From the IMG/VR virus record IMGVR_UViG_3300044728_000136: a DNA stretch of 64,000 bases; one strand, given 5' to 3'. The translations under genes and the position numbers were made by a program. Origin of the DNA: a virus. How positions within the stretch are numbered: the stretch's first letter is position 1; each line of letters opens with the position of its first letter. The notes under the pieces were generated by a model. That model did not search any database. It was not told the DNA's origin and worked only from the letters and a program-made list of their open reading frames with translations. Shown piece after piece: positions 1,139 to 48,255 of this stretch.

Positions 1139-1404
1139 GACGGCTCCTTCACCGACTTCACAGAGAGCGTCAACTTCTCTTCATCCTTGGTGATGACCAC
1201 ACCCTGACAGATCGGTTGGCCACAAAACAATCCCACGAATTCCCAGTGGCTATCGCTCCGGCCTGTACAGACCCACTCCACGTCCAAAGGGATAGCAGGG
1301 AAAAGGACATTCTTGCGAATGTCCCCCAGTGCAATTGATTGCAGGTATTTCAACTCTTCAATCCCTGCGGGCGACTCAGCCTTGAGCGTATCACGGTGCG
1401 TCAT
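1135..1404 (-). CDS. hypothetical protein (89 aa)
   Basis: Track ORF 1135..1611 trimmed to ATG 1404 (MTHRDTLK), which forms a TAATG overlap with the upstream stop. Confidence 0.5.
   Translation of the reverse strand: MTHRDTLKAESPAGIEELKYLQSIALGDIRKNVLFPAIPLDVEWVCTGRSDSHWEFVGLFCGQPICQGVVITKDEEKLTLSVKSVKEPS
1330..1343. repeat. 14-bp quasi-palindrome copy TGCAATTGATTGCA (perfect)
   Basis: Inside CDS 1135..1404 (codes LQSIA). Confidence 0.8.
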
Positions 1405-2369
1405 TACGCCTTCTCCGCGATGATCAGGTTCGTGCCCGTCATCACCGTGGCCTTCCACGCGATGCCCGTGCCGAACAGGAAGGCCCCCACCACACGCTCC
1501 ACCGGGACGCCTGCGGCTTCGAAGTGAATCGAGCCGTAGCTTTGACCCATCTTCAGTTGGAGGCCGGAATCTTCCAGCTTCTTCAGTTCCGCTGTCGGGT
1601 TGTCCGTCCACTCCGCACGGATGGAAATCGAACCCGTCTTGTAGAGCCGTGCGGCGAGCTTCACATGATCCGTCAGTGCCACCGTGTAGTAAACGCTCCC
1701 CGGGCTCGTGCCGTGAACCTTCTGTCCTACGGCCTTGGCGTTCTTCAGGTCAATCACCGCGTCCACGGGTGTAGCAGAGAAGGTATCCGATCCCCAAGAC
1801 GCCCCTGTGGGGCTCCCAGCGGGCTCCAACTTGACGTAGGCACCCGCCGCCGACAGGCTGTCAGCCACCGTCTTGGCGTCCCCTGCGGGGAAGGTACCGA
1901 GGTTCACCGGAGCATGCAACGACGCTTCAACGGTTTGCTTCGCGTCCTTCAACTTCATCGCCGTCGCTGTCATCACCGCCTTGATGACAGGGATCTTTTT
2001 TTCCAGACCCGCAAAGCCCGTCAGCAACACATACATCGCCGTTGTGGCCTTCGTGATGGGTGTCTTTGCCGTAGCAACCGGCGAGCCGTGATCCGCATGA
2101 ATCTTGTTGATCCAGTCGTAGATGAGCACCTTGTTGGAGGCGACCACGTTGACGTCCCCCATGTGCTTCATCAACGACGTCGTTCCGCACGTCAGCTTGA
2201 CATGCGAAATGGACTTGCCGCCGACGTATGCCCGCACGCCATACAGGGACACTTCGAACGTCACCCCTGTCCCCAGAAGGGCCTTGACCTTTTCGGTGAT
2301 GGGATGGATCGGCCCGAACACCGTGCTAAAAAAGACCAACTGAGCGTCTGTGCTTACCGTGAATGCCAT
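1404..2369 (-). CDS. protein with an embedded ribosomal bL12 (L7/L12) C-terminal-like domain
   Basis: Start set to ATG 2369 (AAGGAG + 8 nt). KKIPVIKAVMTATAMKLKDAKQTVEA...AGDAKTVADSLSAAGAYVKLE aligns by eye with the bL12 CTD [24 protein letters not shown]...[20 protein letters not shown]. The gene has its own promoter. Confidence 0.65.
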   Translation of the reverse strand: MAFTVSTDAQLVFFSTVFGPIHPITEKVKALLGTGVTFEVSLYGVRAYVGGKSISHVKLTCGTTSLMKHMGDVNVVASNKVLIYDWINKIHADHGSPVATAKTPITKATTAMYVLLTGFAGLEKKIPVIKAVMTATAMKLKDAKQTVEASLHAPVNLGTFPAGDAKTVADSLSAAGAYVKLEPAGSPTGASWGSDTFSATPVDAVIDLKNAKAVGQKVHGTSPGSVYYTVALTDHVKLAARLYKTGSISIRAEWTDNPTAELKKLEDSGLQLKMGQSYGSIHFEAAGVPVERVVGAFLFGTGIAWKATVMTGTNLIIAEKA

Positions 2370-2404
2370 GCTGCCCACTCCTTGAGCGAAACTGAACTAG
2401 AGAC

Positions 2405-2433
2405 AGTGTAGCACACTGCCCCCGGTTTGTCAA
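2405..2433 (-). promoter_or_regulatory. sigma70-type promoter TTGACA-17-TACACT
   Basis: Minus strand: -35 at 2433..2428, -10 at 2410..2405; about 35 nt upstream of ATG 2369. Confidence 0.6.
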
Positions 2434-2437
2434 AACA

Positions 2438-3145
2438 TTACTTCTTCTTGCCCTTCCAGAGGCTCCGGCTGGATGCCATCGGTTCGAAGGTCTTCGTGGC
2501 CTTCGTGAAGCCGTCCAGAAGCGTTCTGCGGGGCTTCTCCTTGGCCTTGGCCGTTCCCCTCGGGGGATAGAAGTCAAACGTGTGCGTGTCATCTGACGGC
2601 TTGCTGGACGTCATCTTGAGCACCCCACCGGACTTCGTAGGAGTCACCGTGGTGACATGGTAGTGCTTCATCAGGAACTGGACTTGCTCTCGCGACTCGA
2701 CGGCTCTCTTGCAGTAGTGCTTCCGGACGTATTGTATCGCATCCGTCTCGCCCAGTGCCTCAGCCACAATCGCAGAGAGCACCGTGCCTGTCCGACCGTG
2801 CCCACCGATACAGCCGACGTGGACGGACTTGCCATCCTGCAATTGACTGCACAACCACGTCACCATCTTCTTAAACCGTGACACGTTTGAGGGGACACCC
2901 ATATCGTTGATGCTGTACTGCACCTCGACTCGGGCTTGCTTCTCCCACGGATCCGACTGCCGCCCGCCCATGTCCCCCTTCTGAAGGACCACGTAGACGT
3001 CCAGATCACTCTTCACCGGGCTGAAGGCCGCTCCTCCGTAGAGCTTGCCCTTGCCCACCTTCAGCACCGGGTGTGACTCGTAACACCTGACGGCGAGGTT
3101 GGTGCCCTTGAAGGCACCTTCCATCTTGCTATCCCACGTCGCCAT
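2438..3145 (-). CDS. Cys-based dual-specificity/PTP-like phosphatase (CX5R)
   Basis: HVGCIGGHGRTG P-loop, INDMGVP acid loop and an ESREQ motif. TAATG overlap with the upstream gene. Confidence 0.7.
   Translation of the reverse strand: MATWDSKMEGAFKGTNLAVRCYESHPVLKVGKGKLYGGAAFSPVKSDLDVYVVLQKGDMGGRQSDPWEKQARVEVQYSINDMGVPSNVSRFKKMVTWLCSQLQDGKSVHVGCIGGHGRTGTVLSAIVAEALGETDAIQYVRKHYCKRAVESREQVQFLMKHYHVTTVTPTKSGGVLKMTSSKPSDDTHTFDFYPPRGTAKAKEKPRRTLLDGFTKATKTFEPMASSRSLWKGKKK
2838..2851. repeat. 14-bp quasi-palindrome copy TGCAATTGACTGCA (1 mismatch)
   Basis: Inside phosphatase CDS 2438..3145 (codes CSQLQ). Confidence 0.7.
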
Positions 3146-4278
3146 TACTTTTCCAACCTTTCATAGGTGGTAACCGTTTGATTCGGATACACTTGCCACG
3201 AACCAGTCACCTTGACCTTCTTGCCGTGGACGTGGGTCAGCGTGGGTGTCGGAGGGGGAGGAGGCGTCACCGGAACGGCCTTCTTCACCGTCGCCTTCGA
3301 CTTCACCGCCGCCTTCACGTACTTCGACGGATTGTCCTTCTTCTCTTTCTCGGGCCGCAAATCGCTTACCAGTTGCCAGTCCACATGGCCCTTGATCGTG
3401 GGGTTGCCGTTGGCATCCAGCGGGCAATGCGTCTTGATCAACTCCACAGCGGCAATCGCCTCGGGCGTCTTCTTGACGTGCATCGTATTGGACTCCAACA
3501 TCAGGTCCAACATCTGACCAGACCGTTGCACGTCGAGTACCGTCATCAAGGCTGATGCATTTTGGTTCGCGTAGATCTTCACCTCAGTCTTGTTGAAGAT
3601 GGGTCCACCGTTGTGTGCCAGCGTATAGCCCGTGTCAACCAACATCTCCATCGAGGTGACGCCCGTAAGCATCGCTGTCGCCGCATCCGTCACATGGCCC
3701 CACTTCGGCCCGCCATAGCTCTCGACTTCGCCACACCACCCGTCAGCCTTGTGGAACCCGTACGACAGGGCCTTCATGTAGGTCACAATCGGAACCATGG
3801 GGGGCGCATGCATGTACTTGTGCATGGCCGTTTCTTCGCCACCCTGAGAGGTAATCGCGTTCAGGAATACCCGCATTTCAGGTCCGAATTCATCTTCGAC
3901 CTTCGTCCAGAACATCGGGGACGGCGCACCGTGCGACTTCAGGTGGCGCATTTCACGCACGGTGATGCAGAGGATGTAATGCAGCATCCGCTCACCTTGC
4001 GTCATGCACACGTCCGTGTAGTTCGTCATGATGGTTTGCGCCCACTCCGGCAAGGGCTCATTCACCGTGAAGAGCCCTCGGACGATACTCGCGCAGTGGT
4101 TCAGCGTGTAGAACAACACCGCATCGTTTTCAGGCGACTCGTATCCGTCGCCTATTTTCGTCTTGTACTTCAACGTGGCATCCGCGAACACGCCAGTCGG
4201 CAGAGCCGAGAAGTCATGCGTGCGAGCTTGATATGCCGCGTTGAAGTAAGCCAGTGTGTTCTTCGGACGGTGCTTCAT
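3145..4278 (-). CDS. hypothetical protein (377 aa), no family recognised
   Basis: Track ORF 3145..4287 (TTG) trimmed to ATG 4278; AAGGAG at 4296..4291. Lys/Pro-rich C-terminal tail (PPPPPTP). It sits between the two phosphatase genes. Confidence 0.6.
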   Translation of the reverse strand: MKHRPKNTLAYFNAAYQARTHDFSALPTGVFADATLKYKTKIGDGYESPENDAVLFYTLNHCASIVRGLFTVNEPLPEWAQTIMTNYTDVCMTQGERMLHYILCITVREMRHLKSHGAPSPMFWTKVEDEFGPEMRVFLNAITSQGGEETAMHKYMHAPPMVPIVTYMKALSYGFHKADGWCGEVESYGGPKWGHVTDAATAMLTGVTSMEMLVDTGYTLAHNGGPIFNKTEVKIYANQNASALMTVLDVQRSGQMLDLMLESNTMHVKKTPEAIAAVELIKTHCPLDANGNPTIKGHVDWQLVSDLRPEKEKKDNPSKYVKAAVKSKATVKKAVPVTPPPPPTPTLTHVHGKKVKVTGSWQVYPNQTVTTYERLEK

Positions 4279-4313
4279 GAGACTCAATCACTCCTTGATT
4301 GACTAACAGAACC

Positions 4314-4343
4314 AGTCTACCACGACAGTCAGGAATTTGTCAA
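4314..4343 (-). promoter_or_regulatory. sigma70-type promoter TTGACA-18-TAGACT
   Basis: -35 at 4343..4338, containing the TGA stop of CDS 4340..4882; -10 at 4319..4314. Confidence 0.55.
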
Positions 4344-4882
4344 ACGCTGTAGTCGCCAGACGCCTTCTGCTTGAGAACCGTCGTCTGCCCGTTCTTCAGG
4401 CTCAGAGGCATCCGCGTCAGGTTCGTCTTCCAGAACCGCAACCACGCCATCCTGCGGGCTCGCTTGACCTTCCGCCGTAGGGGAGGGGTGATCGTGAACC
4501 GCTTGACGTAGAGGTACTGTTCGGGCGTCTCCACAGCGTGGGAGTAGTAGTTCGCTCGCACAAACTCCACCGGCTTCTTGATGCCGAAGGACTTCGCCAG
4601 AACCGCCAGAAACAGCCCTGTACGCCCCTTGCCGCCCATGCAGCCCACGTAGACAGGTTCCCCGGCCAGAATCAGGTCCAGCGCCTTGCTGAGGCCCCTG
4701 TAGAGGGTTTTCCGGTCTGGGGTCTGAAAGTCCACCGTGGGGATATCGACGGCGCATGCCGCCTTGATCTCCTTGGCCATCTTGACCCCTTGCATGGTCT
4801 TCGGGCACTCCGCAAACGGACCCCCCGTCACCACGAAATACTGCCACCGATTCAACGCGATCTTCAACGTGCCGAGAGCCAT
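4340..4882 (-). CDS. second Cys-based dual-specificity/PTP-like phosphatase (CX5R)
   Basis: VYVGCMGGKGRTG P-loop, DFQTP acid loop and an ETPEQ motif. Paralog-like to 2438..3145. Confidence 0.7.
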   Translation of the reverse strand: MALGTLKIALNRWQYFVVTGGPFAECPKTMQGVKMAKEIKAACAVDIPTVDFQTPDRKTLYRGLSKALDLILAGEPVYVGCMGGKGRTGLFLAVLAKSFGIKKPVEFVRANYYSHAVETPEQYLYVKRFTITPPLRRKVKRARRMAWLRFWKTNLTRMPLSLKNGQTTVLKQKASGDYSV

Positions 4883-4918
4883 GTAGGAACCTCACTCCTT
4901 GAGAAATGAACGGACTTC

Positions 4919-4947
4919 AGTATACCACCAACACCGCGATTTGTCAC
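4919..4947 (-). promoter_or_regulatory. sigma70-type promoter GTGACA-17-TATACT
   Basis: -35 at 4947..4942, containing the TGA stop of 4944..5267; -10 at 4924..4919. Confidence 0.5.
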
Positions 4948-5267
4948 GCGGAGAGATTCAGAGCCGATGCCGTTGTGTCTTCAATCGCCCGGGACACTTG
5001 CCCCGCCCAACCACACGCCTTGCACCCCTCGCCGTCACAGTCATCGTGTTCTTCCAGCATCCGGGTGGAGCCTCGTCCGATCTCCACGAGATCGAAGTAC
5101 TGCATATCCAACAGGACATCATCCTTGATCACGAACAACCACTGCGAGTATCGACGGTTACATCCTCGGATCGACGTGAACGCCACTTCATCCAGAATCC
5201 GATACAATTCATCGGCAGAGATCTGTTCGGCCTCCAAGACACGGAGGACTTTCGCGGAGATCTGCAT
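4944..5267 (-). CDS. hypothetical protein
   Basis: ORF track, 107 aa. C-terminal DDCDGEGCKACGW. Confidence 0.5.
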   Translation of the reverse strand: MQISAKVLRVLEAEQISADELYRILDEVAFTSIRGCNRRYSQWLFVIKDDVLLDMQYFDLVEIGRGSTRMLEEHDDCDGEGCKACGWAGQVSRAIEDTTASALNLSA

Positions 5268-5269
5268 GA

Positions 5270-5533
5270 TTACCGTCGCTCTCCTTTCGGATGTTCGACA
5301 CGAGAGATTCGAATGGACTTGGGCGCGTGGAAGGCCAGTCGATTGCCCCCCACACCCGTTTGCACCTTCACGTTCGGCAAAAGCTCCACAGCCTTCTCTT
5401 CACTCACCATAATCTCTTGGCCTTGGTCAATGGTCACGACCACAATGTTCGGGGCCACCAGAGCCTTGACTTGAAGGAGATGCCCGCCGATATCGATTCG
5501 ACTGCCAACCCCCACACCGATTGATAGAGCCAT
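5270..5533 (-). CDS. small protein, possibly CsrA-like fold
   Basis: VGSRIDIGGHLLQVKAL and GGNRLAFHAPKSIRISRVE resemble CsrA VGETLMIGDEVTVTVLG and [20 protein letters not shown], but the two segments are split by a ~30-aa insertion. The functional call is weak. Confidence 0.45.
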   Translation of the reverse strand: MALSIGVGVGSRIDIGGHLLQVKALVAPNIVVVTIDQGQEIMVSEEKAVELLPNVKVQTGVGGNRLAFHAPKSIRISRVEHPKGERR

Positions 5534-5534
5534 G

Positions 5535-7502
5535 TTACGACACTCCCTTCAGGACTTGCAACGCCATCGGGATAGACAGCATGGACTTCGCTTGCGGCAC
5601 GTAGGTGCCGATGGACACCACGGAGGCCCCTTCGGCTTGCTTCCACGACAACACTCGGGAAATTGCGGGGTCCGTCAGATCCACCCCGTCGAGAATCAGT
5701 TCCTTGTCCGACAGCACCAGCGACCGGAGATCCGCCCCCGGCGTAATCCGAGCGAACGAGAGATGGTACTTCGACTCGGAAATCACCACGAGTCGGCTGA
5801 ACAGATCATGCTCCTTTGGCAGGGCCGCATGCAGCAGGTTGAGTAGCCGTTCGATAGGCGAGAAAGCGTCCACGAGACTCAGGAACCGGGCCTCTTCTGC
5901 GCTGGGCACCAGATCCAGATACAGCTTGCTCACGTAGGTAAGCGTCAGCAATACCTTCTTCGCCGCTTCCTCGGGATTCATCATCGTGTCCCCGAGATAC
6001 AGGAGAGCTTCCGGCATCGGAGTCGTAGGCACGTCGAAGATAATCGGCACAACCCCCAACGTCTGGGTCACCAGTGCGTTGAAATCCTTGATCACGCCGT
6101 TGGTTTGGCCGCTTACAATCGGCACCGCTTCCATCCAGATCCGCCCCGTGGCACCGTCGAGCGTCACCACGTCCGCATCCTTGAAGGATTCCAGCGTGGC
6201 TCCGACACCCACGACACAGGCTCGATCCATCCCTCGGGCCACGACTGCCGCATGACTGGTCATGCCCCCCACCATCGTGATGATGCCCTTGGCCTTCTTC
6301 ATGCCCGCGATATCTTCGGGAGTCGTTTCGTGCGTCACGAGGATGCAGGGCTCCTTGCAATTGATTGCATCTTCCTTGCTGAAGACCGGCTTGCCCGACA
6401 CGATTCCCGAGCATCCCGGGATGCCCGTGAAGGACGCGGGCTTCGTAAACTTGGGGTCAATCGACGCCAGTTGCGCGAGATCGAACTGTCTGGCCGATAC
6501 GCGACTCACCGCCGTCTTCGCATCAATCAGCCCTTGCTTCTCCATATCCACGGCAATCTTGACTGCCGCTGGGGCGCTCCGCTTGCCACTCCGCACTTGC
6601 AGGAGGTAGAGCACCCCGTCTTGCACGGTGAATTCGATATCTAGCATATCCTTCTTCAGGTTTTCCAACTCGATTACGGTCTTGAGCAACGTATCGTGGA
6701 CCGTCGAATTCCACTCAGCCATCGCAGCAAGAGGCTTCGGAGTCCGAATTCCGGCCACGATATCTTCGCCTTGCGCGTTCGGCAGGAATTCACCAGTCAC
6801 CAGCATGCCGCCCGTATCCGGGTTCCGCGTGAAGAGCACGCCTGAGCCCGAATTGTCGTTCAGGTTGCCGAACACCATCGCTTGCACGGTGCAGGCGGTT
6901 CCCCACGCTCTGTCGTAACCGAAGTCCTTGCGGTAGATGTCGGCACGTTCGTTGTCCCATGACTTGAACACAGCCTCGATTGCACCAAGCAACTGAGCCT
7001 TCGCATCCGGAAATTCGTTGCCCGTGCGAGTCGAGTAGGTGTCCAGCGCCACCTTCAGGCTGGACTCCAACGACTCACGACGGATGCCTTCCACGACCGA
7101 CCCATACATCGTGACCAGACGGTGGAAACTGTCTGCGAAGCACTTCGGCCCCAGACGGTTGACCCACTCCGGCATGTTAGAGCCGTCGATCCCCACGTTT
7201 AGGATCGTGTCCATCATGCCCGGGCAGGACACGCGAGCCCCGCTCCGAACGGATAGCAACGGCATGTAGCCGAAGTGCGCTTCCAGCTTCGCGAGATACG
7301 CGGGGAGGGCCTTGGCAATGAGCTTCATCGTGCTCTTGGGCTTCTTGTCGTACTCAGCCCATACGGACGTCGGAATAACAAACCCGGGCGGCACAGACAC
7401 GCCTTGATTGGAGAGCCACAGGAGGCCCGCCCCCTTGCCGCCCAACTCTTCGACTGAGCCGGTCGCTGTCTCGTTTTCGATTCCGAAGGGAAAGAATTGC
7501 AT
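5535..7502 (-). CDS. PPDK-like phosphohistidine dikinase lacking the PEP/pyruvate TIM-barrel domain
   Basis: PPDK ATP-grasp motifs GGKGAGLLWL, RSGARVSCPGMMDTILNVG, NAQGEDIVAGIRTP and LDIEFTVQDGVLYLLQVRSGKR, plus the GGMTSHAAVVARG swivel His. The last ~190 aa show no barrel motifs. ATG 7502 (GGAGTGGAG + 7 nt) is preferred over 7520. Confidence 0.75.
   Translation of the reverse strand: MQFFPFGIENETATGSVEELGGKGAGLLWLSNQGVSVPPGFVIPTSVWAEYDKKPKSTMKLIAKALPAYLAKLEAHFGYMPLLSVRSGARVSCPGMMDTILNVGIDGSNMPEWVNRLGPKCFADSFHRLVTMYGSVVEGIRRESLESSLKVALDTYSTRTGNEFPDAKAQLLGAIEAVFKSWDNERADIYRKDFGYDRAWGTACTVQAMVFGNLNDNSGSGVLFTRNPDTGGMLVTGEFLPNAQGEDIVAGIRTPKPLAAMAEWNSTVHDTLLKTVIELENLKKDMLDIEFTVQDGVLYLLQVRSGKRSAPAAVKIAVDMEKQGLIDAKTAVSRVSARQFDLAQLASIDPKFTKPASFTGIPGCSGIVSGKPVFSKEDAINCKEPCILVTHETTPEDIAGMKKAKGIITMVGGMTSHAAVVARGMDRACVVGVGATLESFKDADVVTLDGATGRIWMEAVPIVSGQTNGVIKDFNALVTQTLGVVPIIFDVPTTPMPEALLYLGDTMMNPEEAAKKVLLTLTYVSKLYLDLVPSAEEARFLSLVDAFSPIERLLNLLHAALPKEHDLFSRLVVISESKYHLSFARITPGADLRSLVLSDKELILDGVDLTDPAISRVLSWKQAEGASVVSIGTYVPQAKSMLSIPMALQVLKGVS
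6356..6369. repeat. 14-bp quasi-palindrome copy (perfect)
   Basis: Inside the dikinase CDS (codes AINCK). In minus sense it is followed directly by AGGAG. Confidence 0.8.
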
Positions 7503-7542
7503 CTTGGGACTCCACTCCATTGGGCGACTTGCTTACTCTCCA

Positions 7543-7571
7543 AGTGTAGCGCACCGATTCTGCTTTGTCAA
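7543..7571 (-). promoter_or_regulatory. sigma70-type promoter TTGACA-17-TACACT
   Basis: -35 at 7571..7566, -10 at 7548..7543; upstream of the dikinase gene. Confidence 0.6.
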
Positions 7572-7616
7572 CTAGCCTCGCCGGTTGGCGGGTGGAAAGT
7601 GTGGCTACGAACCACC

Positions 7617-7646
7617 ACTGTATCAGGGCCGACACCCGTTTGTCAA
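7617..7646 (-). promoter_or_regulatory. sigma70-type promoter TTGACA-18-TACAGT (tandem with 7543..7571)
   Basis: -35 at 7646..7641, -10 at 7622..7617. Confidence 0.45.
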
Positions 7647-7795
7647 GGGGTCTTTTTCTCCCCCATTTTCAGGATCTGGGCGTACGGCTTCTTGACCGGA
7701 GGGGGAATCTCGTTCCACAGGAACCGATCCCCACCCTCGGGGAGCTTGGGCTCCTCGGGCTTCTCGTCTTCCTTTTTGATGATTCTCAGGGCCAT
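7643..7795 (-). CDS. small ORF (50 aa)
   Basis: Own translation: MALRIIKKEDEKPEEPKLPEGGDRFLWNEIPPPVKKPYAQILKMGEKKTP. ATGA overlap with the stop of 7795..9651; its TGA lies inside -35 box 7641..7646. Below the track size cut-off. Confidence 0.35.
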   Translation of the reverse strand: MALRIIKKEDEKPEEPKLPEGGDRFLWNEIPPPVKKPYAQILKMGEKKTP

Positions 7796-9651
7796 CAGTG
7801 TGCTCCTTCACTACTTCCGCCGCCAATGTACTCCATATGGACTTCGTAGACTTCCACCGGCTTCAGTGTAGCATCTCCGGTCTGGTAGGTATAGCCCTTC
7901 CTGACCTTCGTCACCCGGAACCGTGCGCCACTGCCCAACAGGATCTCGCTTTCCATCCGATAATCCTTGCTGTCGAGATCTCTGGCGTTCACGGTGGGTT
8001 TTTGTGTATAATCTGATATCGTGTAATCCTCGGGCTTCGTTGTGCCGTCAGCGGTCCACTCCGGATGTTCGAACACAGAGGGGTCTTGCACCCGGGGAAA
8101 ATCATGCCTCACCCGTCGTGCTGCCTCAACCGGGGCGACCTTCGTGCCCTTCGGGAGGGTGATGTAGAATCGCACGGCTGTCCCCACTTCATCCTGATGA
8201 TCCACCAGTGAATTGGGTTTCCCACCATATCGGTGATAGATACTCTCCCACTTCCCAAGTGCAGGATAGCTACGGGCTCGATTGCCTGCATCTCCGAGCA
8301 TCGTGGATGTGAATCCTTTTTCTTCCCAGATTTCCTGTTCCAATGCCGCGAGATCTTCTGCCGACACCCCGGGCAGATAGGCTCCCCGCTCCACCACCAT
8401 CGCCTCATCCAGCACCACGCCACGGTTCGCAATCAGGTCATCAATCCTGTCGGCCTTCTCGGTCACCTCGGCCAGACGTTCTGGATCGGGCACTGGTCCC
8501 TTCACCACCCAATGTGCTTGGAGATACCCCGGTCCACCCGGCGTGTCCTTCGGGATGTTCTCAAAGCTCCACGAGTAGCGAAACTCAGGGCCTTCTGGGG
8601 GGATCATCTTCTGCACCGCTTCACCGCTTGGTGCAGCTTGCACCTTCGCATACTCTTCGGGCGTCAGCGGACGGATACGCCCCTCCGTTGTGGGGGGCTT
8701 GCCTCGACGGAAGTCGTTGATCTGTCGGTAGGTAAACCCCGCATAGCTACTCAGAACATTAGCGTCCTCATAGGTCAGCGTTTCTTTGGCCCATTTCGCT
8801 CCCGGCCCCTTCTCATGCCACTGATAGCCTTCCTCACTGGTGAATTTACGTCCCACCACGGGCTCTGTGGGTGTGCCTTCTCCTACCCAGTGCTCTGTGC
8901 CTCCACTGCCCTTGACCCATCTACCACCTTGAGAAGTGCCCTTCGGACCACGGGGCTGGTTGATATCGAATTTCTTCGCGCCACTTCTCGTCGGAATCGC
9001 CACGTAAATTCGGTCTGTCTTCCGCACCACCTTCACCGGATCCAGATCTTCTAACGGAGATTCCCAATCCGCATACTGTTGTTTGGGGGCACCGGGAGCA
9101 CCCGGAATTCTCTGTTGCGATCCTCGTGGCCCTAGCACCTCTAACACATCCTCTAATCGGTACTGACGAATCTCCTGAATCAATTCAGGGGGAACCGTCT
9201 CTGTGCTAGACATCTCCGTGCTGATAGCATGGGGCCACGATCCGGGTGGACCAAACACACGTTTACCAGCAGGTTTGAAGTATTGATTCGCCTCTGGCTT
9301 AAACACAATCACCGTGATTGTATCCGCCGACGCATCAGATGACAAAGCGGCATAGCTGATCGCCACTTTCTCACTGGTGGACGCAAAGGCTTTTCCAGCC
9401 ACCACACCGCTATCTGTATCGATATCACTGAGCGGCTTCAGACCCTCTTTCAGAATCTTCTCAGCAAACTCATCCGACGTGCCATGATACAGAGCAAACT
9501 GACCTTCCTTGTCCCGTGGATGCTTGGCTTCATCAAATTTGTGTGCAATTGATTGCACAATTTTCAGCTTGGATTTCTCTTTGACAGAATACCCAGTCTG
9601 GTGGGGAGCCTCAGCATGTGATTGGCCAATTTCAACCGTGAGATCAGCCAT
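7795..9651 (-). CDS. polyvalent (likely virion-delivered) protein with a C-terminal R-S-E ADP-ribosyltransferase domain
   Basis: YAGFTYRQINDFRRG, VVERG, FTSTML (STS) and YRMESEILLGSGARFRV (ExE), plus HPRDKEGQF and QPRGPKGTSQGGRW linker motifs. Start at ATG 9651 (MADLTVEIG) overlaps the upstream stop. Confidence 0.7.
   Translation of the reverse strand: MADLTVEIGQSHAEAPHQTGYSVKEKSKLKIVQSIAHKFDEAKHPRDKEGQFALYHGTSDEFAEKILKEGLKPLSDIDTDSGVVAGKAFASTSEKVAISYAALSSDASADTITVIVFKPEANQYFKPAGKRVFGPPGSWPHAISTEMSSTETVPPELIQEIRQYRLEDVLEVLGPRGSQQRIPGAPGAPKQQYADWESPLEDLDPVKVVRKTDRIYVAIPTRSGAKKFDINQPRGPKGTSQGGRWVKGSGGTEHWVGEGTPTEPVVGRKFTSEEGYQWHEKGPGAKWAKETLTYEDANVLSSYAGFTYRQINDFRRGKPPTTEGRIRPLTPEEYAKVQAAPSGEAVQKMIPPEGPEFRYSWSFENIPKDTPGGPGYLQAHWVVKGPVPDPERLAEVTEKADRIDDLIANRGVVLDEAMVVERGAYLPGVSAEDLAALEQEIWEEKGFTSTMLGDAGNRARSYPALGKWESIYHRYGGKPNSLVDHQDEVGTAVRFYITLPKGTKVAPVEAARRVRHDFPRVQDPSVFEHPEWTADGTTKPEDYTISDYTQKPTVNARDLDSKDYRMESEILLGSGARFRVTKVRKGYTYQTGDATLKPVEVYEVHMEYIGGGSSEGAH
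9544..9557. repeat. 14-bp quasi-palindrome copy (perfect)
   Basis: Inside CDS 7795..9651 (codes VQSIA). Confidence 0.8.
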
Positions 9652-11581
9652 GATCTTCCCACTTTCCAGTAGTGGGATTGAAGTAACCAATAGGTTCTAG
9701 ATGCACCACTTGACCATACAGTTGTGGGATCGGAGTGCCTTCAGCGACACGTTTGTCACTGTGCATCGAACCAAAATACTTGACCTCAGTCTTCACCACA
9801 CGAAACCGTCCTGCCACGATAGCTTCCGAGTACACATGTCCAAACTCTTTAGCATTACCGTCTTCATAGCCTCTTTGCTTCGGATCCGTAGGCCACTTCC
9901 CATATGCCACCATCCGTGTGCCTTTCGGAAACACAAACACCGTTGGAGGCCCTTCTTGATGCTCATGTGCCCCACGAGTTGCATAACCTGTCTCTGGTTT
10001 ACCTGCTGACGCCAGTAACGGCAAATCCATTGTGTCTCCCGGCTGGAAATCCGTAAAAGACACATTTTGAAACGCATGATACAACGGCTCTTCGGAGCCA
10101 GTGGCATCGTTATAAATTTCTTCGAGCATCCGTTGTGCAATGGGATCTGATTCTTTCCACCCTAGATCACGGTATCCTTCAATTCCCATCTCACGGGCTG
10201 CGGCTCCGGTAATCGCACTGCTTCCACTATGTGACCCACCCCATAGTCCAATGTTTTTCATCCGTAAAATCTGGTGGGTTATTGCTGGGGGCTCATAATC
10301 ACTACTCTCAGGAAGGTCTTCCCATCCATACGGTTGTTCACCAGTAGATGATCGATTCCACCCTCCCTCATGTTTCAGCCATGTATTTTTGTTCGATGCT
10401 TGAAACCCACCTACCTTCGCAAATCGTCCACCTTCTGACGTACCAGAAGGTTCTCGGACGTACTCTCGCTTTCTCACCAGAGCTTCAATGGCCGCGATCT
10501 TCTTATTACCCCTGAACGTCCACTTCCCAGACGGCTCCTGATCCATGTACTGCGTAATGTACGGGTAGGCTGAGGCATCGGCTTGGTAGAAGGCCAGTTG
10601 CAGAGTCACAAAGTCAGCGATGTTCATGCCGACTTTTTTGGCCTTCTCTTGGAGCTTGGCAACCACCTCGGCTTCCTTGGCCTTGAAGCCTTCATAGCCT
10701 CTGAACAAAGGTCCAATCAGGTCATGATTCATCAACTCCGTGGCGAGTGTTATGTCCTTCTCACTGAAGCCTTCCTTCCGTAGCACGTCTTGGAGAATGG
10801 GTGTCGTGTATTCGTGTTGCTGTTCTTTCCCGCCTCCTTCTTCAATCGCCTCAGCTTTGCCGATGTCATGCAGAGGAATGGCTGATTCCATCAATCGGCC
10901 TACATCGCTCCCGAATCGTTCGGAGATACCAGCCAACTCCTCATCCGTCAGTTGCTTTTCCCACTCTCGCCCCACGTCTCCTGTATGAGCTTCGATGCTG
11001 CCCATCTCCGTGCCTGTGTCACGGGGGTAGTTATGGGCGACGGCTGAGTAGATGGCTTTCATATGAGCCATACGACCCATGACTCGTGCCCACCGTCCTT
11101 GCTTGTCTCGTGGCTGGCTGGGATCCCACTTCAGGCCAAGATCTTGTCGCGTCCACGGGCCATGATGACGGGCTCGTATCTGGTTCCGGATCGCTTCCGT
11201 GCTGGTATAAGAGGCTTCCAGTTGAGCGTTGAGAAGCGCATAGTATTTCTCTTTGGCAAGGATCACACCAGTCGTCGGGTCAACCACCGTGCCATTGGCC
11301 CGTTCAATCCACGCATGATCGAACGTCTTGCCTTCGGCATTGGTGACCTTGCCGTGAACAATCTTATCTGTCTGGGATCCGTGACGAGCATTCCATCGGT
11401 TCACATTGGCGAAGCACAGGCCCGGTTCCCCGGCTTCGCACGTCTCCACCGTGGAGGCACCTTTCGCAAACCGTCCAGCCTTGTCTCGTGGTTGCGTGGG
11501 ATCAAACTTCAGCGCCCAGACGTACTCCCGCTTCACTACGAAGCGTTCGGCGTAGTCCTGCTGAAGGGAACTTCGGAGCAT
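9644..11581 (-). CDS. polyvalent protein: papain-like Cys/His domain + HD phosphohydrolase domain + uncertain ART-like C-terminus
   Basis: GLCFANV..FDHAWIE..VVDPT (C-H-D) and AIPLHDIGK..HEYT..MNHDLIG (HD), plus three DPxQPRDKxGRF/W-type motifs. The C-terminal LYHAF/LLASAG/YSEAIVAGRFRV is only loosely ART-like. Confidence 0.65.
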   Translation of the reverse strand: MLRSSLQQDYAERFVVKREYVWALKFDPTQPRDKAGRFAKGASTVETCEAGEPGLCFANVNRWNARHGSQTDKIVHGKVTNAEGKTFDHAWIERANGTVVDPTTGVILAKEKYYALLNAQLEASYTSTEAIRNQIRARHHGPWTRQDLGLKWDPSQPRDKQGRWARVMGRMAHMKAIYSAVAHNYPRDTGTEMGSIEAHTGDVGREWEKQLTDEELAGISERFGSDVGRLMESAIPLHDIGKAEAIEEGGGKEQQHEYTTPILQDVLRKEGFSEKDITLATELMNHDLIGPLFRGYEGFKAKEAEVVAKLQEKAKKVGMNIADFVTLQLAFYQADASAYPYITQYMDQEPSGKWTFRGNKKIAAIEALVRKREYVREPSGTSEGGRFAKVGGFQASNKNTWLKHEGGWNRSSTGEQPYGWEDLPESSDYEPPAITHQILRMKNIGLWGGSHSGSSAITGAAAREMGIEGYRDLGWKESDPIAQRMLEEIYNDATGSEEPLYHAFQNVSFTDFQPGDTMDLPLLASAGKPETGYATRGAHEHQEGPPTVFVFPKGTRMVAYGKWPTDPKQRGYEDGNAKEFGHVYSEAIVAGRFRVVKTEVKYFGSMHSDKRVAEGTPIPQLYGQVVHLEPIGYFNPTTGKWEDHG

Positions 11582-28910: not shown

Positions 28911-28940
28911 AGTGTAGCAGGGAGGAGGGGAGTTTGTCAA
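28911..28940 (-). promoter_or_regulatory. sigma70-type promoter TTGACA-18-TACACT
   Basis: -35 at 28940..28935, -10 at 28916..28911. Confidence 0.55.
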
Positions 28941-29861: not shown

Positions 29862-29891
29862 AGTATACACCCTATCTGGGGGGTTTGTCAA
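29862..29891 (-). promoter_or_regulatory. sigma70-type promoter TTGACA-18-TATACT
   Basis: -35 at 29891..29886, -10 at 29867..29862. Confidence 0.6.
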
Positions 29892-33262: not shown

Positions 33263-34065
33263 GTGCAAAACTCTTTGATCGCCAGTGCGGAGGGTCGGGG
33301 CGTCCAATCGTGGTTGAACAGCCCGAAATCTTTCTCCGGATTCCCCGGTACGGGCGCATAGATGTAGGTCGCTTCGATCCCCAGTGCGAGATTGATGCGT
33401 AGTTCCTCTGCGATGTAGGCTCCTTGATCGGCTTGGTTCACGCCTGCGAGATTCCAGCCCACCTCGGTCACTTGCACGATCATCTCGTCAGGAAGCGGGC
33501 GAGCCATCGCCGCATATTCTTCCCACCGGGTGGGATAGCGTGACGTGGAGGGAGGAGAGGGTTCTCGATACGTGTGCCATGCGACTCGATCATACGCATC
33601 GTCTGGAATGGTCGCTCGGACTTCCTCAAACCAGTACCGGTGAATCTGCGGGCCTGCTCTATCGGGTTGGAGGTAATCCCCGGCGAGAATCAACACGGTC
33701 TGCCCTTCCAGATACTCACACACCTGTCGAGCGAGGGTGCCGTAGCGTTTCCCACTCCACCCACCCATCACCCTCGGCTCATTGAGGATTTCCACTTCTT
33801 CGAAGTCAAACGCCACCACCACATCCTGACAGAACGTCAGATAAGCGTGCATGTCCGGATCGTGATCATAGGTGAAGTCGAGAATCGGCAGAAGGATAAA
33901 CCCTGCTTGCTGTAACGGTCCCACGATCTTCAGCGGATCGGGGTGGCGATAGTCGAGATTGAAGCGGACGTGCGTGGCTCCGGTTTCCTCTCGGATGAGG
34001 GTCCAGAGATCGGCATCCACCACACTCTCAGGCCCGGGGGTGGGGCACACCAGACCGACTCTCAT
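33250..34065 (-). CDS. glycoside hydrolase, clan GH-A-like TIM barrel
   Basis: EILNEP (acid/base NEP) and VTEVGW (nucleophile Glu) in the expected order. Confidence 0.6.
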   Translation of the reverse strand: MRVGLVCPTPGPESVVDADLWTLIREETGATHVRFNLDYRHPDPLKIVGPLQQAGFILLPILDFTYDHDPDMHAYLTFCQDVVVAFDFEEVEILNEPRVMGGWSGKRYGTLARQVCEYLEGQTVLILAGDYLQPDRAGPQIHRYWFEEVRATIPDDAYDRVAWHTYREPSPPSTSRYPTRWEEYAAMARPLPDEMIVQVTEVGWNLAGVNQADQGAYIAEELRINLALGIEATYIYAPVPGNPEKDFGLFNHDWTPRPSALAIKEFCTQVP

Positions 34066-35750
34066 GCCACCACTCCTCCGGCACTATTCCACACTGCTGT
34101 CCCCGCTTTTGGGCCGTTGGGATCTTCATAGATGACCAGCACCCGATCATCGTTCAACTGGCACATGGCCCCGGGATGCCCATCGGTATGCGAAGCCCAG
34201 ACTGGATTTCCATCTCCGTCATAGATCACGAGATTGCCATCGGGATTCATCTTCACGTTGCCCGGTTTCGTACCGCCTGTTTGAGAGGCCCAGACCGCTT
34301 CTCCCGTATCGGTATAGAGCACGAAGTTGCCATCGGCCTCATCGTACTTCGCCTGACAGGTTTTCCCTGTGGCAATCAATTGCTCGCCGGGTTGCAACGT
34401 GTCTTCGGAGAATAACTGATGGCGCTCCGTGACCACCGGGACGCTCGGGCCTCCCTCGGTCTTCACCACCTTGGCGATCTCGGGCATGTGGGGCAGTTCC
34501 CACACGAACCGGATTTCTCGCCAACCATTGTGATATTTCTCAGGGAGATGCCCGTTCCACACACACCACTCACTGTGGGTGACATACATGGGCCATCCGG
34601 CGTTTTTCGTGTTGGTCAGGTCTTTCTCGACCTGATATTCGTCGGCATACATCCCACCCGCTGAGGAGCCCGGTCCCGGGGGCTCATTATTGATTTTGGG
34701 CAGGCTCTTGTAGAACGCATTGAACGCAAACGGATCAGACCACTTCCCGTTGTCTCGCATCGTATGAATCGTGATCTCATTGGCTCCGCTATGATCAGCG
34801 GCTCCATACAATTCATCGAAGCTGTCTTGCATCTCTTCGTTCGTGGGATTCGCTCCCATCCCGCCATGCGCGGCATCAGGTGAGGACAACGAGAGTAAGA
34901 ATCCTGCGGGCAACTTTGACCGCATATCCGTCCCCATATTTCGCACTTCTTGGGGCGTCCACTTATTCACTTTGAATTCGTTCGCGCATTCGAAGCTACG
35001 TATCGCTTCCCATTTTCCCTGTGAGGCGGCGATGATGCGATCCTGAAAGCGTCTTCGATCATCTTCCGTGGGGGTTTGATTTCTCCCGCCGTAGATGGTG
35101 CAATGAAGTTGCTTCCCCAGATTGCCCACCACGTCCAACATTTTCTTATAACGATTTTCCCAATCGTCATGAATGAACACGCCTGCATCGGTCCACACGT
35201 CCGGACTGCCGTGGCTTTGTCCCTCGACAGCGAGCATGACACGGAACACCGAAGGATTCATCTCTCCCAGAATCCAGTCCATGTTCTTCTTGGCTTCGTC
35301 GGGCCACTTGGCCAAGGCGGTCATCAAGCAGAACCACCCGAAGGCAATCGTGCAATCAGTTGCAGTCCCTTCGTGTGGCGTGCCACTGTCATAGATCGGC
35401 CATCCGCTGATATCGACGTAGACGTTACTTGGACGCCAAAAGGCGGGCGGAATCACTGTCCATGCGGGGCCAGCAGGAGCGGGATGCCCACCGGCACTTT
35501 GGATGATGTCTACACGCTCTCCGTTGGGCCATGCAAGGACATCATGCGAACAGCGTTGCTGATTCGGATAGGTGTAGCCTGCTTCGCCTGCACTCTTACT
35601 CAGCAAACCCACTCTCTCCGCTTTCATCTCCGGCTCGGCACACACCCACTGCAAGTACTCCCCACAGGCCGGAACCGAGTTGTATTGCAGGAGATAGGGT
35701 TTCGCCTGATTCACACGATCTACAACTTTTCGGCCAATTGTGGGGTCCAT
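34062..35750 (-). CDS. glycoside hydrolase-like domain fused to a C-terminal bulb-type (B-) lectin domain
   Basis: CANEF and INNEP barrel-like motifs. The C-terminus has three QxDxNxVxY-type subdomains (DEADGNFVLYTD, NPDGNLVIYDGDG, LNDDRVLVIYED). Confidence 0.65.
   Translation of the reverse strand: MDPTIGRKVVDRVNQAKPYLLQYNSVPACGEYLQWVCAEPEMKAERVGLLSKSAGEAGYTYPNQQRCSHDVLAWPNGERVDIIQSAGGHPAPAGPAWTVIPPAFWRPSNVYVDISGWPIYDSGTPHEGTATDCTIAFGWFCLMTALAKWPDEAKKNMDWILGEMNPSVFRVMLAVEGQSHGSPDVWTDAGVFIHDDWENRYKKMLDVVGNLGKQLHCTIYGGRNQTPTEDDRRRFQDRIIAASQGKWEAIRSFECANEFKVNKWTPQEVRNMGTDMRSKLPAGFLLSLSSPDAAHGGMGANPTNEEMQDSFDELYGAADHSGANEITIHTMRDNGKWSDPFAFNAFYKSLPKINNEPPGPGSSAGGMYADEYQVEKDLTNTKNAGWPMYVTHSEWCVWNGHLPEKYHNGWREIRFVWELPHMPEIAKVVKTEGGPSVPVVTERHQLFSEDTLQPGEQLIATGKTCQAKYDEADGNFVLYTDTGEAVWASQTGGTKPGNVKMNPDGNLVIYDGDGNPVWASHTDGHPGAMCQLNDDRVLVIYEDPNGPKAGTAVWNSAGGVVA
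34371..34384. repeat. 14-bp quasi-palindrome copy GGCAATCAATTGCT (inner 12 intact)
   Basis: Inside CDS 34062..35750 (codes EQLIA). Confidence 0.55.
35351..35364. repeat. 14-bp quasi-palindrome copy TGCAATCAGTTGCA (1 mismatch)
   Basis: Inside CDS 34062..35750 (codes ATDCT). Confidence 0.65.
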
Positions 35751-35756
35751 AGGCTC

Positions 35757-37718
35757 CTACGCGCTTTCTTCGATGAGCGATTGATACTCAGGGACGTTTG
35801 GTTTTTGGAGCTTGTCTACGCTCGCATAGACGCTCTGCGGAATCATCAAGACAGGAATCCGATACAGGCCCCACATCTCCCGGCGCATGGTCAACCCATA
35901 CACGACTCCTGCGAGGGCGTCTGCACAGTCCTTACTGCCTCCGGGGGGATGATCGACTTTCCCGGTCTTCACGTCTTTTTCCAGCGTGAGAATTTCGCGA
36001 TGGAGCTTCGGGTGGGTGGGGACGTTCAACCGCGCTTCATACACCGCTGTCTTGGTAAAGTCATAGGGTGGACAGGGCAACGTGTCCATACTCTGATGTC
36101 CGGTAATCAATCCCTGTTGCCGCAGAATTTGCTGACTGTCTGCGGACTGGAATTGATCGAATGTACACCAGACAATGTTCAGGCCCATCTTCTTCAGGAC
36201 GATGATGACTTCGCGGATCTTGCCGAGTAAGATCTCGCAGTTCTTTGGAGGACGGATCTCTAACACACCATCGATCCACACCTCGGGCATGTAAGCGGGC
36301 TGAATGGGATCGCTCGATACGCTCTTAAAGCCTGAAACGGTCCCGATGCAGAGGCCCGCCGAATCCCCTGATAGAGCAAGGTCACAATGAGCGAACCTCG
36401 GGATATCAGGATTCCAGAAATTCTTCTTAAGAAGTGTGAGACGTGTCTCTACGAAGTCCACCACCGGTTGAGAGAAGATCGATTCTCGGGGCTTAAAGGC
36501 GTAGTGGACCTTTTCCACCTCTAAGAAGAAGGGGTGTCTAGCTAAAGTGCTCACCCCGGCGATCTCTCTCAGGGCGTTGATGATGTCTTTTTCGAATTCC
36601 TGTCGAAACTCATTGGGGACCGCGACACACAAGGCTCGCATGTCATCATTAACCGGTTCCCCTTTCTCTATGAAACGCGGCTTCCGGGTGAGATCCCCCA
36701 CGAAGACCGCGAACCAGCCTCGGTTCCCGAAGTCCTCCGGCTTGATATCCCAGACGCGCTTATCGTATACAAAAATGGTGGGGTCTTTCTCAGCTTCAGC
36801 CACTTTCTGATCGGTGAACTGACCGGGGTACTTCTTACTAGACACCAGACAGAGTATACCGGGTAGCTTCCCGTTTTCCATGAACCGCGACTTGCGTCTT
36901 CGTGCAATCGAGTTGTAGAGGAGGATCGCTTGGTCATACGTGCCTTTATCCACGGCTACACGCGACTTCTCCACCACGCTCATGTAGTTCAATTCATCGA
37001 TCAACCCGCCCATGACGTTCTGGCCGATGGCCGCTGTCTCAGTACCAGCGACCGGTACGACTTCAACGCGATTCGGAAACACAAGCCGACTATGTAGGCT
37101 TTTATCGAAGGGGTAATACTTGTTGAAATAGGGCGAGCCTTCAATCATGTGTCGAAAACGCTGATAATCCACACCTTTGGCTAAGTTGAGCGTCATACTC
37201 TGAAAGACGAGGAGAATTTCGGAGCTTGGGTCCAGTCCGAACTGTCCGTGGGGATTCCTCAGACACGAGAGCAGATACAACTGATAAGCGTTCGTGTACA
37301 AGGCGAGCGTCGTCTTCCCTGAGCCAATCCCGCCCGTCATAATCGCTTCGACATAGAACCCGTTGTTCAGTTCTTCTGCGGCGGCTAAGACCCCCGGGTA
37401 GATCTCGGCGGCTTTGTTCAGGTATCTCGGACTACAGATGAATTCTCGAATGCCTACGGGCTTCCACTTGTACTGGGCGTAGTCTTGGAGTTGCGTGGAA
37501 GGCGTGCCGCGTAGGGCTTCCTCGACATGCACCACGCTCTTGGCGTAGAACAGGGCGCGTTCTTGCGGATCGGCAATCTTCTGGCCGGTTTTCCAGATCT
37601 TAAGAGCTTCGTCCTTACCTAAGAACTGTTCAAAGTAAGCATAGGCTCGCGCATTGACCTGATGGAGGTGTTGCTCAGGGGTGGGGGGAGGCGCTTTGGG
37701 CTGCGCGAATTTGAGCAT
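35757..37718 (-). CDS. terL: terminase large subunit
   Basis: 653 aa. Walker A TGGIGSGKTT. Size and overall layout are typical of TerL. Confidence 0.8.
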   Translation of the reverse strand: MLKFAQPKAPPPTPEQHLHQVNARAYAYFEQFLGKDEALKIWKTGQKIADPQERALFYAKSVVHVEEALRGTPSTQLQDYAQYKWKPVGIREFICSPRYLNKAAEIYPGVLAAAEELNNGFYVEAIMTGGIGSGKTTLALYTNAYQLYLLSCLRNPHGQFGLDPSSEILLVFQSMTLNLAKGVDYQRFRHMIEGSPYFNKYYPFDKSLHSRLVFPNRVEVVPVAGTETAAIGQNVMGGLIDELNYMSVVEKSRVAVDKGTYDQAILLYNSIARRRKSRFMENGKLPGILCLVSSKKYPGQFTDQKVAEAEKDPTIFVYDKRVWDIKPEDFGNRGWFAVFVGDLTRKPRFIEKGEPVNDDMRALCVAVPNEFRQEFEKDIINALREIAGVSTLARHPFFLEVEKVHYAFKPRESIFSQPVVDFVETRLTLLKKNFWNPDIPRFAHCDLALSGDSAGLCIGTVSGFKSVSSDPIQPAYMPEVWIDGVLEIRPPKNCEILLGKIREVIIVLKKMGLNIVWCTFDQFQSADSQQILRQQGLITGHQSMDTLPCPPYDFTKTAVYEARLNVPTHPKLHREILTLEKDVKTGKVDHPPGGSKDCADALAGVVYGLTMRREMWGLYRIPVLMIPQSVYASVDKLQKPNVPEYQSLIEESA

Positions 37719-48225: not shown

Positions 48226-48255
48226 AGTCTAGCGTTTTTCAAATCTCATTGTCAA
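48226..48255 (-). promoter_or_regulatory. sigma70-type promoter TTGACA-18-TAGACT
   Basis: -35 at 48255..48250, -10 at 48231..48226. Confidence 0.55.

Follow-up and report, generated by a model that had tools for sequence, protein, structure and literature searches.

Why should a phage carry a relative of pyruvate,phosphate dikinase (PPDK) that is too short for a pyruvate domain, and keep it with two phosphatases and an unfamiliar protein next to its DNA polymerase gene? The question arises from a block of genes in a 64,000-nucleotide stretch of the virus record IMGVR_UViG_3300044728_000136 (the window, to whose positions all coordinates refer), which is part of a ~119-kb phage. The module consists of the dikinase, two Cys phosphatases (PTP-A and PTP-B), and a 377-aa protein, U380, with two small proteins (S87 and S107) between the dikinase and PTP-A. 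Our results support the view that the dikinase is a PPDK-derived phosphotransferase with an ATP-grasp domain and a swivel His, and not a PPDK. It is a new variant within the superfamily of PPDK and phosphoenolpyruvate (PEP)-utilizing enzymes, inside an undescribed, widespread, and phage-specific module.

The dikinase and its C-terminal domain

The dikinase retains two of the three PPDK domains. Its only Pfam matches are PF01326 (PPDK_N; E-value of 3.2e-36) and PF00391 (mobile His domain; 2.3e-26), and residues 25 to 468 align with PPDK residues 18 to 512 with an E-value of 5e-93 (against PDB sequences including 1KBL and 9PZL). The alignment keeps GGKG, VRSGARxSxPGMMDTILNxG, DxEFT...LQxRxGKR, and GGMTSHAAVVARG; the last is identical to PPDK, and the catalytic-His motif is nearly invariant in 46 relatives. 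By homology, the dikinase would bind ATP in the ATP-grasp domain and form a phosphohistidine on the swivel, as does PPDK (EC 2.7.9.1; Clostridium symbiosum 1KBL/1DIK), in which the two domains follow each other in the same order. The start codon used here (ATG 7502) is also the choice of the gene callers (P0121, 100% identical), while a start at the upstream ATG 7520 would lengthen the protein to 661 aa.

The third domain is different. PPDK ends in a PEP/pyruvate TIM barrel of 340 to 380 aa, whereas the dikinase ends in an unrelated-looking beta/alpha domain; about 195 residues remain after the swivel domain, compared with 376 to 382 in three true PPDKs taken from the matches in the phage collection. 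Pfam found no PEP-utilizers_C domain (PF02896) in the dikinase, a profile of the C-terminal domain had no match among PDB sequences, and hhalign against the C termini of true PPDKs gave a probability of 0.4%, with an 18-residue linker alone aligned. AlphaFold2, run with a 47-sequence alignment, predicted the domain confidently (pLDDT of 91) as a compact beta/alpha fold with eight short strands. A Foldseek search of this model against the PDB gave nothing significant (best E-value of 8e-3, TM score of ~0.3); nearly all of the weak matches were generic TIM barrels, including a few glycosidases. The domain is weakly conserved in the family, with one Asp as the only near-invariant polar residue, and no Arg, Cys, or Asn is conserved at the level that PEP binding would need. 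When a profile of the domain was searched for in other architectures, the matches were limited to four fragments of this same protein. Although the tail could descend from a barrel that has shrunk, it is not a pyruvate domain. Small, acidic (median isoelectric point [pI] of 5.25), and variable, it has more the character of a docking platform than of a catalytic site.

Family models place the enzyme outside PPDK proper. It failed the PPDK equivalog model (TIGR01828) with 418.2 bits against a cutoff of 843.45 and came closer to the model for truncated PPDKs (NF004531), with 414.4 bits against a cutoff of 456 and model positions 18 to 461 of 534 covered. With the rifampin phosphotransferase model (58 bits; cutoff, 999), the mobile domain alone matched (residues 357 to 455), and the same domain alone matched other swivel-His families with E-values between 1e-8 and 1e-16. 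Because the barrel has been lost, the phosphate presumably goes to an acceptor other than pyruvate. An earlier note on this DNA, made from the letters alone, had read near-canonical ATP-grasp motifs and a TSHAAVVARG swivel in the protein, had argued that the last ~190 aa could not be the PEP/pyruvate barrel, and had proposed a phosphotransferase with a non-pyruvate acceptor; the searches bear out all three points.

PPDK derivatives without a pyruvate domain exist in cells. The VadK/Rv1127c type (NF004531/PRK05878) is a close parallel, and VadK autophosphorylates, binds partner enzymes (PMC13400623), and acts as a kinase rather than a metabolic enzyme. VadK differs in that it has no domain beyond the His domain and is a cellular protein linked to the methylcitrate cycle; the dikinase has an extra conserved C-terminal domain, is phage encoded, and belongs to a fixed module with two phosphatases and U380. 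Other swivel-His enzymes with acceptors different from pyruvate are rifampin phosphotransferase (PMC4844700), the prodigiosin ligases PigC/RedH, HpeHI (PMC12167813), Enzyme I of the phosphotransferase system (PTS), and glucan water dikinase. They share a logic with the dikinase, namely, a mobile His domain that is charged by ATP (or PEP) and hands the phosphate on to a separate acceptor site, in some systems on a different subunit (e.g., the two-component kinase HpeHI). They differ from it in domain order and acceptor domains; rifampin phosphotransferase, for example, consists of an ATP-grasp domain, a rifampin-binding domain, and a C-terminal His domain, an architecture that the dikinase does not have. 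To our knowledge, none of these enzymes works with paired Cys phosphatases.

A conserved block and its partner proteins

We scanned IMG/VR with the U380 alignment, which gave 56 loci, and searched their open reading frames (ORFs) with the window proteins. Every locus that spans the block has the same order on one strand: dikinase, (S87, S107), PTP-A, U380, PTP-B, a protein with an L12-like domain, and a family-A DNA polymerase (PolA). The phage of the window has this order too, and it holds down to 28% identity in U380; two near-identical loci have no detectable PTP-A. The U380 stop codon and the PTP-B start codon overlap or abut in most loci. Among isolates, tblastn matched both the dikinase and U380 in DLP5, DLP3, and Summit (Stenotrophomonas phages), in RcZahn (a Rhodobacter phage), in Rhizobium phages (where the two genes are ~3.4 kb apart), and in about 28 Vibrio phages. 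Annotated records of Stenotrophomonas, Rhodobacter, and Vibrio phages show the same gene order, ending at the DNA polymerase. The module, whose synteny and attachment to the DNA polymerase gene do not vary, belongs to the core of a wide clade of 80- to 120-kb siphophages with hosts in Vibrio, Stenotrophomonas, Rhizobium, and Rhodobacter, among others. A search of the phage collection for near-identical DNA gave no match; hence, the phage of the window is not among the isolates.

The earlier note had seen that the genes belong together, and they do co-occur in every relative examined. Its picture of an accessory, moron-like island has to be given up: the order is the same in every spanning related locus and the G+C content of the block (0.57 to 0.585) is that of its flanks, even though the block has promoter-like sites of its own.

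U380 is the least familiar member, as the earlier note had suspected; we found no match for it in the PDB, in Pfam, or in other viral families. The gene callers also give it 377 aa. It has 169 relatives at an E-value of ≤1e-3 in a collection clustered at 90% and 2,363 representative clusters in a metagenome library clustered at 50%, nearly all of them single-domain proteins of 330 to 380 aa. Pfam found nothing informative in any of the 47 members of the U380 alignment, nor fusions to informative domains in the seven longest relatives, and NCBIfam, PADLOC, and a profile search against PDB sequences were equally uninformative. The AlphaFold2 model is confident (pLDDT of 91, pTM of 0.84) and predicts an all-alpha domain (residues ~1 to 310), a flexible linker that is often rich in Lys and Pro, and a small, conserved beta-hairpin tail. 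With this model, Foldseek retrieved no relative from the PDB and only the protein's own family from the viral models in BFVD. A series of matches to the terpenoid-synthase fold was disregarded (TM score of <0.2, probability of <0.1), as was a single weak match to YfbR/HD proteins (E-value of 0.14), which was not reproducible. Twenty-seven alignment columns are invariant, including Y60, N63, R111, E112, R114, E214, D218, H225, N226, K233, D252, and Q254, a set that reads like a phosphate- or metal-binding active site. Since just 4 of 185,579 species-representative genomes contain a family member, in all four cases on contigs of metagenome-assembled genomes, the family is essentially restricted to phages.

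The two phosphatases have CX5R P-loops (CMGGKGR in PTP-A and CIGGHGR in PTP-B) and are 40% identical over the P-loop region (E-value of 3e-13), in line with the paralog-like pair noted earlier. PTP-A passes the Pfam model PTP-SAK (PF22784; 34.2 bits, cutoff of 27) and PTP-B the model Tc-R-P (PF22785; 28.4 bits, cutoff of 27). Their nearest solved relatives are MptpB (1YWF) and small archaeal enzymes (TkPTP, 5Z59; SsoPTP, 2I6I), which are protein tyrosine phosphatases (PTPs). With small Cys phosphatases of the PTP and dual-specificity phosphatase (DSP) types they have in common CX5R, a general-acid Asp, and VET..Q; long basic C-terminal tails and their occurrence as a phage-specific paralog pair set them apart. 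The catalytic Cys and Arg are kept in 50 of 50 PTP-A and 50 of 52 PTP-B sequences, the remaining two rows being spurious pattern matches, and at least 90% of the members of each family (about 50 diverged sequences apiece) retain the general-acid Asp and VE(T/S)..Q. The PTP-B loop CIGGHGRTG is almost invariant. Both proteins are basic (pI of ~10), most strongly in the tails, and look like active hydrolases under selection. In the window, the ATG of PTP-B overlaps the stop codon of U380, an arrangement by which the two would be translationally coupled.

To judge from its conserved ends (MALSIGVxVGSxIxVG ... NRLAFxAPKSIxIxR), S87 looks like the RNA-binding regulator CsrA interrupted by an insertion; Pfam found no match in S87, which is present in most loci and whose homologue in J26 is annotated as CsrA. 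The C.G.GC..CG..G motif of S107 is a DnaJ-like zinc-finger pattern, and its DLP5 homologue is annotated as "transcriptional repressor." The 321-aa protein, which nearly all relatives encode at this place between the PTP-B and DNA polymerase genes, has a genuine bL12 (L7/L12) C-terminal domain (Pfam, 3.9e-9; PDB bL12, 1e-4), which sits between unrelated N- and C-terminal regions.

Transcription appears to start within the block. A scan of positions 1200 to 8000 found eight sigma70-like sites, compared with 2.1 ± 1.5 in shuffled sequences; five of them are on the coding strand, and these are the five promoters that the earlier note had listed, at the same positions (P1 to P5 in Table 1). The phage consensus is TTGACAAA...TAnAsT. 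A tighter motif, TGACA-N16-19-TANAST, occurs eight times in the window (0.56 expected), five times within the block. The other three consensus matches in the window (28911-28939, 29862-29890, and 48226-48254, minus strand) are also all on the coding strand. In relatives, the motif recurs before the dikinase, U380, and L12-like genes: 167 kb of block sequence contain 25 sites, 259 kb of sequence outside the block contain 9, and the opposite strand has none. A site before the dikinase is found at the P2 position in five relatives (L007, L014, L015, L017, and L029), and the P4 position is conserved in many. Because these positions are conserved between relatives at 50 to 60% protein identity, the promoter-like sites look real and are probably functional. 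The transcription units appear to be dikinase-S87-S107, PTP-A alone, U380-PTP-B, and a unit from the L12-like gene to PolA. The earlier note's claim that each gene has its own promoter stands as to the promoter positions and fails for PTP-B, whose ATG overlaps the U380 stop codon; the site after it faces the L12-like gene. At 2399-2423 (minus strand), a hairpin with an 11-bp stem is followed by a T-rich run and overlaps the -10 element of P5; it may be a terminator or attenuator of the U380/PTP-B unit.

Table 1. Genes and promoter-like sites of the block (window positions)
Feature	Position	Strand	Description
P1	7617..7646	-	TTGACA-18-TACAGT, TG-extended; upstream of the dikinase gene
P2	7543..7571	-	TTGACA-17-TACACT; 41 nt upstream of dikinase ATG 7502
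Dikinase	5535..7502	-	655 aa; ATP-grasp, TSHAAVVARG swivel, ~195-aa C-terminal beta/alpha domain
S87	5270..5533	-	87 aa, basic; CsrA-like motifs at both termini; follows the dikinase, conserved
S107	4944..5267	-	107-aa acidic protein; NRR..W.F and C.G.GC..CG..G cysteine knuckle
P3	4919..4947	-	GTGACA-17-TATACT; before PTP-A
PTP-A	4340..4882	-	Cys phosphatase, 180 aa; GCMGGKGRTG, general-acid Asp, AVET..Q, very basic C-terminal tail
P4	4314..4343	-	TTGACA-18-TAGACT; before U380
U380	3145..4278	-	377-aa novel-fold protein; predicted all-alpha domain, linker, beta-hairpin tail
PTP-B	2438..3145	-	Cys phosphatase, 235 aa; P-loop CIGGHGRTG, basic tail
P5	2405..2433	-	TTGACA-17-TACACT; downstream of PTP-B, faces the L12-like gene
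L12-like protein	1404..2369	-	321 aa; ribosomal bL12 C-terminal domain
Two small conserved genes	1135-1404 (89 aa), 740-1138 (132 aa)	-	Lead into the family-A DNA polymerase gene

Substrate and mechanism

What could such a module do? We hypothesize that it is an early-expressed, replication-linked system for phosphorylation and dephosphorylation of nucleotides or nucleic acids, with U380 as the partner on the acceptor side, a reading that we favor tentatively and with somewhat less than even confidence. In outline, host-type promoters would drive a conserved phosphoryl-transfer module that is specific to phages and linked to their replication genes. The dikinase would take phosphate from ATP to the phosphohistidine of its swivel and on to a non-pyruvate acceptor, its C-terminal domain would serve as a docking platform, and U380, co-translated with PTP-B, would supply the acceptor site in trans. 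The basic Cys phosphatases would strip phosphomonoesters in the same pathway. We infer the substrate class from the context of the genes; the module might activate or modify phage DNA or its precursors, or process terminal phosphates. A nucleotide or nucleic acid is preferred because the block is invariably linked to PolA, PTP-A is a PTP-SAK member, the phosphatases are basic, the block includes the CsrA-like S87, and the DNA of two isolates is reported to resist restriction. DLP3 DNA resisted 15 of 15 restriction enzymes (PMC7326821), and DLP5 DNA is listed as restriction resistant (PMC8228603). An alternative in which a partial reaction runs in reverse next to the polymerase to recycle pyrophosphate and AMP was set aside, as it suggests no phosphate donor.

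The combination of a phage kinase and a phosphomonoesterase recalls T4 polynucleotide kinase/phosphatase and the "Swiss-army-knife" (SAK) proteins of RNA-end repair. The SAK proteins were reportedly defined in an RNA-repair paper by Burroughs and Aravind. PTP-A belongs to PTP-SAK, and SAK proteins process RNA terminal phosphates, according to a citation in PMC9503650. The kinase of the module, however, is a His-swivel dikinase and not a P-loop kinase, and the conserved block lacks a ligase, although DLP5 has a DNA ligase gene ~2.6 kb upstream of the dikinase. We speculate that the resemblance would be one of function and not of homology.

Several points weigh against a nucleotide or nucleic acid substrate. 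The dikinase and its C-terminal domain are acidic, a poor fit to direct nucleic acid binding. Among the scanned window ORFs, we found no nucleotide-modifying enzyme beyond a DNA methyltransferase, and no thymidylate-synthase-like hydroxymethylase or glycosyltransferase adjoins the module. The resistance of DLP3 and DLP5 DNA is weak evidence, because unrelated Stenotrophomonas maltophilia phages from the same laboratory are also resistant, and the genomes of both phages hold other candidates for it (a glycosyltransferase, ParB-like proteins, and methyltransferases). The linkage to PolA may reflect only shared early timing, and the view of U380 as an enzyme and a partner of the dikinase is drawn solely from residue conservation and gene order. 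We consider distinctly unlikely a more specific version, in which an undescribed chemistry on phage DNA or its precursors leads to DNA modification (the dikinase would use ATP to activate a group on a nucleotide or on DNA, U380 would use or create a phospho-intermediate, and the phosphatases would tidy up). If true, it would explain why DLP3 and DLP5 DNA resisted all restriction enzymes tested, and no earlier case would be known in which phosphohistidine chemistry of the PPDK type acts on nucleic acids in connection with replication.

An unlikely but serious alternative is that the module acts on proteins to take over or regulate the host, the dikinase being a His phosphotransferase to a protein and the PTPs dephosphorylating host or phage proteins early. 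This would parallel the transfer from PTS Enzyme I to HPr and the one proposed from VadK to metabolic enzymes in Mycobacterium tuberculosis; VadK, which also lacks the PEP domain, autophosphorylates and binds partners (PMC13400623), the dikinase scores 414 bits with the VadK-type model NF004531, and PtsI and DhaM use this mobile His domain for protein phosphotransfer. To judge from its acidity and variability, the C-terminal domain would suit docking of basic proteins better than binding of a small molecule, the nearest solved relatives of the phosphatases are protein tyrosine phosphatases, and the promoters are early and of the host type. However, the dikinase stays below the VadK-type cutoff and carries a domain that VadK does not have, and the strictly conserved, enzyme-like U380 and its coupling to PTP-B are left unexplained. 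Moreover, the targets in the host would not be the same in Vibrio, Rhizobium, Stenotrophomonas, Rhodobacter, and Acidobacteria, but the module does not vary. In a further alternative, the P-loop Cys of a PTP-like protein would accept the phosphate in the manner of EIIB and pass it to a substrate bound by U380, an ATP-driven relay from His to Cys. Relays of this kind are established in the PTS, and the module does place a phosphohistidine generator of the Enzyme I family, with no evident acceptor domain, beside two proteins with a Cys P-loop, an acidic dikinase with basic PTPs, and PTP-B in co-translation with U380. Both PTP families nevertheless conserve the general-acid Asp and the Gln of VE(T/S)..Q, which PTPs use for dephosphorylation and hydrolysis of the Cys-phosphate. 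Ordinary phosphatases are therefore favored over relay carriers, and we know of no precedent for a phosphate carrier with the DSP fold; we regard the relay as very unlikely.

The earlier note had drawn an analogy to polysaccharide metabolism, in which glucan water dikinase (GWD) is paired with the phosphatases SEX4/LSF2 or laforin, so that a glucan dikinase and glucan phosphatases would remodel a host polymer. Beyond this analogy, a window protein with a weak lectin match (see below) and the few glycosidase barrels among the weak Foldseek matches of the C-terminal domain would fit. The analogy breaks down at the proteins themselves: Pfam (E-value of ≤0.01) found no carbohydrate-binding module in the dikinase, PTP-A, PTP-B, or U380, and the domain order is that of PPDK and not of GWD. 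The module is tied to the DNA polymerase, not to tail or depolymerase genes, and does not vary between hosts whose envelopes and storage polymers are very unlike each other, which leaves a glucan substrate highly improbable. That the gene encodes a genuine PPDK, an auxiliary metabolic gene that boosts glycolysis or gluconeogenesis in the host, is almost certainly wrong. In favor of this annotation, which stands in many genome papers, is the strong similarity over two of three domains; the J26 genome paper describes a TIM barrel in the dikinase and docks PEP to it (PMC12038007). Our results do not support that reading, given the lack of PF02896, a C terminus of ~195 instead of ~376 aa, the negligible hhalign probability, half of the equivalog score, and no conservation of Arg, Cys, or Asn at the level of PEP binding. 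The gene also always comes with two phosphatases and U380, next to PolA. Hence, the published label of a PPDK auxiliary metabolic gene is not tenable.

A gene that several genome papers list as a "pyruvate phosphate dikinase" that boosts host glycolysis is instead part of a fixed, phage-only module of four putative enzymes, one of which, U380, has a fold without a solved relative and forms more than 2,000 sequence clusters in metagenomes. Once the substrate is identified, a sizable part of phage "dark matter" would have a function, the swivel-His dikinase family would gain a new acceptor class, and new nucleic acid or host-takeover chemistry could come to light. Some phages of the clade are under development for aquaculture and clinical therapy.

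Published annotations and surroundings of the block

The earlier note had not recognized a module of this composition. Dozens of published phage genomes in fact contain its genes, labeled as a PPDK auxiliary metabolic gene, tyrosine phosphatases, "thymidylate synthase," or "membrane protein." As a module, they appear to be new: in the literature searched, no paper treated the genes as one unit, addressed the function of the module, or questioned the PPDK label, and none recognized that the pyruvate domain is lost or that U380 forms a family. The phosphatase family corresponds to PHROG 17568, whose label "thymidylate synthase" is mistaken and goes back to how DLP5 gp143 was annotated. Mislabels of this kind propagate; a U380 homologue is called "putative membrane protein" and the L12-like homologue in J26 "pyruvate decarboxylase." The entries concerned are PHROG 17568, DLP5 gp143 (locus L001, 13592-14380), and J26 (locus L006, 10061-11074 and 11085-11939).

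An ORF check placed all ORFs of the region on the minus strand, at the same coordinates as in the first reading of the sequence. The 1,047-aa family-A DNA polymerase lies just past the start of the window on the same contig (locus L003, 16766-19909). It carries an intein, seen as a faint Intein_splicing match; the PolA ORFs of several relatives are enlarged as well, while others have ~790 aa. Elsewhere, the window encodes a terminase, a DNA methyltransferase, a topoisomerase-like protein, helicases, a primase, a RecA/UvsX-like protein, and RuvC. The DNA methyltransferase (488 aa; 37718-39184, minus strand) adjoins the large terminase gene, and a 562-aa protein (34062-35750, minus strand) has a weak match to a D-mannose-binding lectin domain (B_lectin) at its C terminus.

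Upstream of the dikinase, two large proteins (7795-9690 and 9644-11581, minus strand) contain repeated (D/H)P.QPRDK.GRFA motifs and have weak matches to ADP-ribosyltransferase/PARP, RNA 2'-phosphotransferase (KptA/Tpt1), and HD (Cas3''-like, PLHDIGK) domains. They look like polyvalent effectors that are possibly delivered with the virion. Finally, a 225-aa protein (58488-59165, minus strand) ends in a PEP-CTERM sorting motif (Pfam, 4e-6), which suggests a host with an exosortase system.

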